A stretch of DNA of 4,222 nt from IMG/VR virus record IMGVR_UViG_2711768020_000009. The stretch is one strand, 5' to 3'. Of this stretch, positions 3,064 to 3,380 are shown one piece after another. Both the position numbers and the translations under genes were made by a program. Positions within the stretch are counted from its first letter, which is position 1. Every line of letters starts with the position of its first letter. The notes under the pieces are model-generated. The model was not told the DNA's origin. It saw only the letters and a program-made list of their open reading frames with translations, and ran no database searches. This DNA is from a virus (lineage: Duplodnaviria > Heunggongvirae > Uroviricota > Caudoviricetes).

Positions 3064-3343
3064 CGGGTGTGGTGGTTGTTGCTTTCCCGTTGCTGAAAAA
3101 GAAAACGCCAGACTGTTAGCCGGGTATCAGTTAGCGGGAGAAATTTTTAAATACTTCACAATTCAGGCGGTTGACTGTTGTCTGGTTTGCGGGGAGTTTG
3201 TTAAAAGAAACTGGCATGGTGAATCCCCCTGTGCGGAGGGGCAATCAGCGAGTAGGTATATGGGATAATCGCGGATTCAGGTGCTGGTACTGAATTCACC
3301 GGGAGGCACCCGGCACCATGCAATGGCACATAGCGCCACTCTC

Positions 3344-3380
3344 CAGCCCCTCTCCGGAGGGGCTGTTTATATTGATTTTG
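3344..3380 (+). terminator. Rho-independent (intrinsic) terminator, plus-strand orientation
   Basis: GC-rich hairpin CAGCCCCTC-TCCG-GAGGGGCTG (9-bp stem 3344-3352/3357-3365, 4-nt loop) followed immediately by the T-rich tract TTTATATTGATTTTG (3366-3380). The sequence on the other side of the stem is not T-rich when read on the minus strand, so it is oriented for plus-strand transcripts. Confidence 0.55.

Follow-up and report, generated by a model that had tools for sequence, protein, structure and literature searches.

The RNA known as 'Gammaproteobacterial sRNA STnc100' in Rfam (RF02076) occurs in the EHEC strain EDL933 in 11 copies, all of which are transcribed, and one of these, STnc100_4, is Northern-positive (PMC5331693). 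The STnc100 copy located 75 nt after stx2B overlaps the RNA denoted EcOnc27 or sRNA103 (PMC12370729, PMC12711010, PMC7873438), which is supported by Northern blot and Hfq-CRAC (PMC7873438, PMC4104026), and the overexpression of which raised the levels of the fimZ and espA transcripts (PMC12370729, PMC12711010, PMC7873438). Convergent pairs of Hfq-binding sRNAs encoded between PR' and the lysis genes have been described by Tree et al. in at least 8 prophages of the Sakai strain (PMC4104026). Furthermore, a 2026 preprint assigns a common ancestry to STnc100 and the EPEC RNAs PasD1 and PasD2 (10.64898/2026.05.13.724894). PasD depends on Hfq for its stability and has targets identified by RIL-seq (PMC8550237), and the chimera between PasD2 and the yjbJ 3' UTR is the most abundant CsrA-bound chimera in EPEC, accounting for ~20% of the chimeric reads (bioRxiv 10.64898/2026.08.12.744399).

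Here we analyzed a 4,222-nt stretch of viral DNA (IMG/VR record IMGVR_UViG_2711768020_000009), which we refer to as the window. An earlier note, made from the sequence alone, had singled out positions 3120-3380 as a structured noncoding segment ending in a terminator, either a small RNA or a leader/attenuator, and had proposed to subject it to RNA folding, a covariance-model search and a comparison of homologues for compensatory base changes. An Rfam 15 scan of the whole window yielded a single strong match, to STnc100: positions 3185-3374 on the plus strand align with the model over its full length (1-206 of 206) with a score of 132.4 bits (E = 4.6e-30), the gathering score being 47. The RNA also has the STnc100 set of helices, namely, a closing helix around the CCCCU/AGGGG hairpin, the hairpin that we denote P4, and the CCGGG/CCCGG hairpin, followed by the terminator, and it is located, like other members of the family, in the late region of a lambdoid prophage. 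The structure of the segment is more than a product of chance, given the E-value of the covariance-model match, the shuffle test of the fold and the covarying helices described below. We conclude, with a probability of roughly 85%, that the interval 3214-3374 on the plus strand is an STnc100-family sRNA gene in the late region of an Escherichia coli lambdoid prophage; the family membership, the fold, the covariation of the pseudoknot and the synteny are all directly supported. The family is already catalogued and the copy in the window shows no material difference from it; the helices, the prophage setting and the frequent presence of multiple copies per genome are common to both. The features of the locus are as follows.

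1317-2171: gene for the antitermination protein Q (PF03589)
Between the tRNA genes and the DUF3927 ORF: unannotated ORF of 117 aa
2988-3119: DUF3927 ORF, 43 aa (Pfam E = 1.7e-27), annotated in RefSeq
3178-3183, plus strand: predicted -35 element TTGTCT, aligning with TTGACT of the PasD promoters and separated by an 18-bp spacer from the -10 element
3199-3207, plus strand: predicted extended -10 element, consisting of TG (3199-3200), one base and TAAAAG (3202-3207)
3214-3374, plus strand: predicted sRNA transcript of ~160 nt (161 nt as folded), with the 5' end placed from the promoter and the 3' end from the terminator
3214-3221, plus strand: 5' strand of the closing helix P1, GCATGGTG, pairing with 3314-3321; 94% of cells paired, 7 of 8 pairs with compensatory changes
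3226-3241, plus strand: hairpin P2, CCCCT-GTGCGG-AGGGG, almost invariant; 97% of cells paired in the model-fitted alignment (A3, see below); GGA/GGAGG on the 3' side of the loop
3244-3250, plus strand: 5' strand of the pseudoknot, ATCAGCG, in the P2-P3 junction, pairing with 3282-3288
3273-3297, plus strand: hairpin P4, GGATTCAG-GTGCTGGTA-CTGAATTC, 3273-3280 pairing with 3290-3297; 94% paired, 8 of 8 pairs with compensatory changes
3282-3288, plus strand: 3' strand of the pseudoknot, TGCTGGT, which is the P4 loop
3299-3313, plus strand: hairpin P5, CCGGG-AGGCA-CCCGG, nearly invariant; 99% of cells paired; contains GGGAGG
3314-3321, plus strand: 3' strand of P1, CACCATGC, partner of 3214-3221
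3322-3343, plus strand: variable linker AATGGCACATAGCGCCACTCTC with a small 4-bp hairpin, candidate seed region
3344-3374, plus strand: intrinsic terminator, stem-loop 3344-3365 and tail TTTATATTG
3735-3400: iraM paralogue, convergent to STnc100
Cut at ~4126 by the end of IS600: fragment of a DUF1737 gene

The order of genes in the window is RusA (masked), Q, a module resembling PR'-tR', three tRNA genes (masked), the 117-aa ORF, the DUF3927 ORF, STnc100, iraM and the DUF1737 fragment. ARAGORN found no tRNA in the window, the genes being masked, and all that the Rfam scan shows of them is the 3' end of the last one. Phages JLK-2012 and mEp460 share the late-region order of the window, and in intact relatives, the genes for holin, lysozyme and Rz come next. 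The exact STnc100 copy of the window is carried, for example, by EAEC 042 and SK1144. At all loci examined, functional phages included, STnc100 is sense-oriented between Q and the holin/endolysin genes. Judging by this gene order, the window belongs to an E. coli lambdoid prophage, of which it represents the late region. Many E. coli chromosomes contain the 281-nt segment encompassing the RNA at 100% identity; matches were found in 2,860 of the 5,426 complete E. coli genomes, at up to 12 places per genome, as well as in 285-371 phage records, mostly of Stx-converting and other lambdoid phages. Several loci in other prophages contain tandem arrays of 2-4 STnc100 units. IpeX of the DLP12 prophage of K-12 was considered as a candidate for the same RNA but was dropped, given that the Rfam models detect no STnc100 in MG1655 across quuD-nmpC-essD.

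All three hairpins, including that of the terminator, and the repeated motif were found where the earlier note had placed them. The sequence readily reveals CCCCT-gtgcgg-AGGGG at 3226-3241 and CCGGG-aggca-CCCGG at 3299-3313, and the terminator scan identified CAGCCCCTC-TCCG-GAGGGGCTG at 3344-3365, with 9 pairs (7 of them G-C) and a loop of 4 nt, followed by TTTATATT; the motif CGGAGGGGC is present at 3234-3242 and 3355-3363. These copies belong to a longer, 17-nt direct repeat (3226-3242 and 3347-3363, 88% identical) formed by the first hairpin and the terminator hairpin. The three hairpins correspond to three helices of the RF02076 model. The absence of ORFs of 60 aa or more between 2953 and 3399 is upheld as well, the longest ORF in this interval encoding 50 aa. 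By contrast, the nearest protein-coding gene is not ~400 nt upstream, as had been claimed: the DUF3927 ORF ends 95 nt before the predicted start of the RNA. Nor does the RNA appear to extend over the entire segment, which had been taken to start at 3120: it probably begins near 3214, and 3120-3213 comprises the spacer and the promoter.

The folding and the comparison of homologues that the earlier note had proposed both bear out the structure. The 161-nt RNA folds with an energy of -69.5 kcal/mol, compared to -57.1 +/- 4.2 for shuffled sequences (z = -2.96; 0 of the 200 shuffles were as stable), and the minimum free energy structure contains P1, P2, P4, P5, the small linker hairpin and the terminator. 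Homologous loci were retrieved by an exact search with 24 nt of the P2 region, which located them in twelve Enterobacterales genera as well as in at least 120 viral contigs, and yielded 103 distinct 284-nt stretches that are 43-100% identical to the window. The conserved core is 108 nt long and consists of P1 enclosing P2, a variable hairpin, P4, P5 and the pseudoknot.

Two alignments of the core were analyzed. In the first one (A1), built with MAFFT from 70 distinct cores and not fitted to any structure, the named structure is paired in 92.0% of the cells, compared to 82.6% in the shuffled control and 39-46% with slid partners, where the slide control is the fairer one because the homologues are mutually related and shuffling overstates the significance; compensatory changes were identified in 18 of the 32 pairs. 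The second alignment (A3) was obtained with a covariance model built from A1, so that it is fitted to the model, and includes 134 copies from 100 sources; its 79 distinct rows come from E. coli, E. albertii, E. ruysiae, Pantoea, Erwinia, Enterobacter, Atlantibacter, Franconibacter, Phytobacter, Lelliottia, Superficieibacter and viral contigs. Here, 95.7% of the cells are paired, compared to 85.4% in the shuffles and at most 47.5% with slid partners, and 20 of the 26 pairs show compensatory changes. P1 and P4 covary strongly, and P2 and P5 are nearly invariant. The invariance of P2 in A1 is uninformative because this sequence was the bait, whereas that of P5, which was not used in the retrieval, is independent of it. 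Thus, covariation supports the fold.

Apart from the nested helices, the core contains a pseudoknot, in which the P2-P3 junction pairs with the loop of P4. In the structure-blind alignment A1, all 6 tested pairs of the pseudoknot show compensatory changes, and 66 of the 70 variants can form a helix of 6-9 bp, in which at least 10 sequence types are represented, such as ACTGGATA/TATCCAGT, AAGCCACAG/TTGTGGCTT, CTGGTGT/ACACCGG and GCCAGGTC/GACCTGGC. The mean length of this helix is 6.9 bp, compared to 4.65 bp when the junctions and loops are mixed across variants. The pseudoknot is retained in PasD (AAUGAUC/GAUCAUU). It is absent from the consensus structure line of RF02076 and is not mentioned in the 2026 preprint on the STnc100-PasD relationship (10.64898/2026.05.13.724894). 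This covarying pseudoknot is an addition to the structural model of STnc100.

The Rfam model begins ~30 nt upstream of the 5' end predicted here. We infer that STnc100 is transcribed from its own sigma-70 promoter, from which transcription would begin with the first base of P1, at about G3214. This assignment is based on the position of the promoter and on PasD2, for which the 5' end was estimated by RNA-seq at position 741157 of NC_011601 (Pearl Mizrahi et al., Table S6, PMC8550237), a position that maps to the homologous G of GCAUGGUG, again the first base of P1. The TG-n-TAAAAG/TAAAAA sequence is also found 5-7 nt before P1 in most of the E. coli-type variants, and across lineages, a promoter arrangement at a fixed distance from P1 recurs even though the sequences differ. 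A positioned-promoter scan of the 103 variants gave a score of 8.47, compared to 6.18 +/- 1.13 for shuffled upstream sequences. The generic promoter scan of the window does not list this promoter, the two hexamers being weak (4/6 and 4/6, that is, 8/12).

At the other end of the RNA, the interrupted U tail (UUUAUAUU) contains no more than three consecutive U, which makes it weaker than the tails of many relatives. Of the 103 variants, 79 carry a recognizable terminator, which in 69 of them starts 16-31 nt after P1; in the other 24, none was detected over the 60-90 nt sampled. The linker between P1 and the terminator is hypervariable, with 31 distinct versions among the 79 terminator-bearing variants, and the PasD seed, UGUGAG, falls in the interval homologous to it. 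In some variants, an intact STnc100 core is followed by a tail of the PasD kind, suggesting that modules are exchanged between the STnc100 and PasD types.

The comparison with PasD1 and PasD2 of EPEC E2348/69 (homologues of EcOnc13) confirms, at the level of sequence, the relationship of these RNAs to STnc100. They are located, as is the RNA in the window, directly after the DUF3927 ORF, preceding esterase or holin genes, and align with it through the promoter, P1, P2, the pseudoknot and P4. With scores of 41.4 and 37.7 bits, under the STnc100 threshold, the two PasD RNAs are degenerate relatives that lack the P5 hairpin but keep GGGAGGC, and differ in the P2 loop. PasD is an experimentally supported, Hfq-dependent sRNA of 172 nt with the seed in a 60-nt linker that contains UGUGAG, whereas the linker in the window is 22 nt long, has a different sequence and lacks UGUGAG.

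EcOnc27/sRNA103, which is encoded downstream of stx2B in Sp5 and 933W, has a position in the late operon equivalent to that of the RNA in the window, but the Stx2-phage copies of STnc100 are only ~70-76% identical to the window and face a convergent anti-sRNA, AsxR, whereas the copy in the window faces a protein-coding gene, iraM. AsxR and AgvB share with STnc100 the 'moron' site between PR' and the lysis genes, where they form convergent dyads with STnc100-type RNAs, but are 51-60-nt RNAs on the opposite strand, with a conserved 42-nt 3' region. Neither AsxR (RF02703) nor AgvB (RF02702) has a match on either strand of the window, even at E <= 1.

By analogy with PasD1/PasD2 and EcOnc27/sRNA103, the RNA encoded in the window could function as follows. 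It would be transcribed independently from the weak sigma-70 promoter with an extended -10 element (3178-3183 and 3199-3207), beginning at about G3214 and ending at the intrinsic terminator (3344-3374), to produce an RNA of ~160 nt with two modules, the conserved 108-nt core and the short, hypervariable, single-stranded linker together with the terminator. This RNA would be made in the lysogen, bind Hfq and pair with host and prophage mRNAs via the linker. During lytic growth, the STnc100 DNA would lie inside the late operon antiterminated by Q, so that the polymerase could get to the lysis genes only by reading through the terminator. Such read-through by the Q-modified polymerase fits the layout, given that STnc100 is sense-oriented between Q with its PR'-tR'-like module and the lysis cassette. 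For the copy in the window, we infer dependence on Hfq, a seed in the linker and pairing targets with only middling confidence because the U tail is interrupted and thereby poorer than the long U runs that favor Hfq binding. Moreover, plain base-pairing sRNAs that depend on Hfq do not usually have a highly conserved, pseudoknotted core with invariant hairpins, which suggests a further role, for example, in protein binding or in cis.

One possibility, tentative and rather less probable, is that the core is mainly a scaffold for CsrA, which would bind GGA in P2, P5 and the terminator and would be either sequestered or guided by the RNA. In the case of guiding, the variable linker would select the targets, in the way reported for PasE. 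Either mode could exist alongside Hfq-dependent pairing. GGA or GGAGG is present on the 3' side of the loop in P2 (GCGGAGGGG), P5 (CGGGAGGCA) and the terminator (CCGGAGGGG); the GGA-bearing sequences of P2 and P5 are nearly invariant across genera; PasD kept GGGAGGC despite the loss of the P5 hairpin; and other prophages contain tandem arrays of 2-4 units. Furthermore, PasD2 dominates the CsrA-bound chimeras in EPEC (10.64898/2026.08.12.744399). However, this binding is reported for PasD2, a relative, rather than for a bona fide STnc100, the GGA of P2 and P5 is located partly in the stem instead of the loop, and GGAGG can equally be read as a plain Shine-Dalgarno-like, G-rich stem sequence. 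The known CsrA-associated sRNAs, such as PasE, McaS and CsrB/CsrC, resemble the RNA in the window in having several GGA hairpins but show no sequence similarity to it, and the CsrB/C-type RNAs consist of many simple hairpins, in contrast to the closed, pseudoknotted core of STnc100. Binding of CsrA does not require such a defined fold.

Somewhat less probable still is a role mainly in cis, whereby the terminator would insulate the lysis cassette from upstream transcription (of the tRNA and moron genes) in the lysogen and would be read through only under the action of Q, the RNA itself being a by-product. The constant sense placement between Q and the holin/endolysin genes and the presence of the terminator in 79 of the 103 variants are in line with such a role. 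So is locus L010, a compact prophage of Superficieibacter, in which two tandem copies fill the space from the PR'-tR'-like module to the holin gene and late transcripts must therefore pass three terminators. Nevertheless, a terminator alone leaves the covarying 108-nt core and the conserved dedicated promoter unexplained, 24 of the 103 variants have no detectable terminator in the 60-90 nt sampled, and members of the family accumulate as discrete, Hfq-bound RNAs with partners in trans.

We regard it as highly improbable that the STnc100 RNA is the short terminated transcript from PR', that is, the equivalent of the lambda 6S RNA or StxS. The two have features in common: the RNA is encoded between Q and the lysis genes, would be constitutive in lysogens and ends at a strong terminator, and 6S RNA and StxS are likewise short, constitutive, terminated RNAs of the late region, with terminators that the Q-modified polymerase reads through. 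However, these RNAs begin at PR', directly after Q, whereas STnc100 begins ~1 kb further on, with a predicted start ~1,040 nt after the stop codon of Q; its promoter lies beyond three tRNA genes and two ORFs. The identity of the STnc100 promoter with PR' is ruled out by the presence of a separate, conserved module of a promoter-like site and a terminator directly after Q, which is found at ~2150-2215 in the window, where it runs into the masked sequence, and is complete in E. coli 042 and in loci L010 and L045; in L010, it consists of TTGACA-16-TATGTT at 1662-1689 and a terminator at 1700-1719. In addition, the element in Stx2 phages follows stx2B, which itself is transcribed from PR' (PMC12370729, PMC4104026), and STnc100 can be present in several tandem copies.

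Of the two options in the earlier note, the small RNA is favored by the full-length STnc100 match, whereas the leader or attenuator is not: the next gene, iraM, is convergent, the genes downstream vary among relatives, and the RNA has a conserved, predicted promoter of its own, so that a riboswitch or 5' leader can be rejected. In some distant lineages (L030, L045, L061 and L132), an ATG closely follows the core, but a leader role was discarded for these as well, given that L045 has no plus-strand ORF at this place and a terminator comes ~190 nt later.

Finally, a protein-coding or decayed gene (the minus-strand pseudogene called by PGAP or small plus-strand ORFs) is hardly credible. In its favor, the RefSeq annotation has an incomplete pseudogene of a hypothetical protein at this place, a hypothetical protein of 132 aa is annotated on the strand opposite PasD1, and ribosome footprints are reported on some of the EDL933 copies. 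However, Pfam matches none of the ORFs in the interval, the core lengths (100, 101, 103, 104, 105, 106, 107, 108, 114, 115 and others) vary by indels that are not multiples of three, substitutions keep base pairs rather than codons or reading frames, and conservation of the ATG in the 3' strand of P1 does not extend beyond the E. coli-type variants. The core lengths and the conservation of base pairs also speak against the gene disrupted by frameshifts that the earlier note had considered.

The assignment of the RNA in the window to the STnc100 family, thus, stands, and its value as a discovery is small: the family has been in Rfam for years, is present in more than half of the complete E. coli genomes and is the subject of recent papers. 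With the family identity already known, the pseudoknot, the assignment of the start site and the lead to CsrA are modest additions. There is also a consequence for genome annotation. PGAP misses the RNA and, in its place, calls an incomplete pseudogene of a hypothetical protein in the antisense orientation, at the position matching 3204-3329, which is probably an artefact. The pseudoknot, together with the predicted promoter and 5' end and the split between the core and the linker, provides a concrete structural model for the STnc100 family. The invariant GGA hairpins, along with the presence of PasD2 on CsrA, may suggest a connection of prophage sRNAs with CsrA that is open to experimental testing. 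A more far-reaching scenario, which we consider unlikely, is that the invariant part of the STnc100 and PasD RNAs, rather than being a passive 5' domain, is a pseudoknotted scaffold that offers GGA hairpins to CsrA or another protein, with recombination swapping the linker that selects the targets. If this is the case, lambdoid prophages across Enterobacterales would carry modular, protein-guiding RNAs, sometimes in tandem, within the late operon.

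The sRNA gene predicted in the window, STnc100, lies in a late region with the following features (window coordinates):

2150-2215, running on into masked 2216-2436: promoter-like sequence
2599-2952 (+): 117-aa ORF, flanked by the tRNA cluster and the DUF3927 ORF
2988-3119 (+): small, membrane-like DUF3927 ORF
3204-3329 (-): pseudogene of an "incomplete hypothetical protein" (RefSeq/PGAP), antisense to the sRNA core
3397-3430: inverted repeat of 12 bp without mismatches, TCCTTATGGACT / AGTCCATAAGGA; the loop has 10 nt
3400-3735 (-): paralogue of the anti-adapter IraM, convergent with the sRNA gene
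4126-4222: end of an IS600 element (IS3 family), the last ~97 bases

At the sites where RefSeq/PGAP places the antisense pseudogene (6085-6210 in L001 and 2268-2393 in L143, both homologous loci), the sRNA itself carries no annotation, and the pseudogene probably represents an artefact of annotation, carried over from ORFs called on a conserved RNA. Within the sRNA, the P2 hairpin (3226-3242) and the terminator hairpin (3347-3363) are direct repeats with 88% identity, and their cross-complementarity is 76%; judging from the sequence, alternative pairing between the two is possible in the E. coli-type variants. The terminators in other genera are unrelated.

In both prophages of EPEC (ORF at 2959-3117 in L139 and 3062-3220 in L140), as in the window, the DUF3927 ORF is located directly 5' of the STnc100/PasD gene. 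The two may travel together as one unit. The preceding 117-aa ORF had no match in a Pfam search and is absent from the PGAP annotation of E. coli 042 and SK1144; it occupies the moron position at which Stx phages carry stx.

Further upstream, directly 3' of the Q stop codon, there is the conserved promoter-like sequence (TTCGTC...AACTATGGGC...TATGCC), after which a terminator begins (ACAACCC...); the whole module can be seen in E. coli 042, in the compact Superficieibacter prophage (L010) and in another homologous locus, L045 (ACAACCCGCC..CGAGCGGGTTTTTTT). Most likely, this is the PR'-tR' late promoter module and, therefore, the origin of a second short RNA. Two runs of N (734-1304 and 2216-2436) mask the greater part of the rusA-like gene and the tRNA cluster. 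With 284 aa, Q in the window is longer than the antitermination protein annotated there in SK1144 and 042 (273 aa), which makes the source strain mosaic relative to these genomes upstream of the tRNAs.

Downstream of the sRNA gene, the IraM paralogue, a relative of the RpoS stabiliser of K-12, fills the place that is taken in EHEC prophages by the AsxR/AgvB anti-sRNAs. The inverted repeat overlaps with the stop codon and the final codons of this gene. Homology between the window and the intact prophage ends at 4125, where the IS600 copy is inserted in the DUF1737 gene; the ~97 bases of it in the window are 100% identical to IS600 in thousands of records.

The window contains one copy of STnc100. 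In Superficieibacter and Erwinia prophages and in several viral contigs, two to five copies are arranged in tandem, some of them degenerate (26-31 bits):

L007, 110-1688
L010, 1903-2346
L014, 217-798
L021, 2322-3354
L023, 3146-3745

In Phytobacter massiliensis (L013, 2244-2506, minus strand), a tRNA gene begins 1 base past where the STnc100 match ends; ~900 nt away, there is an RNA of the isrJ family. The RNA genes of the late region are tightly clustered.
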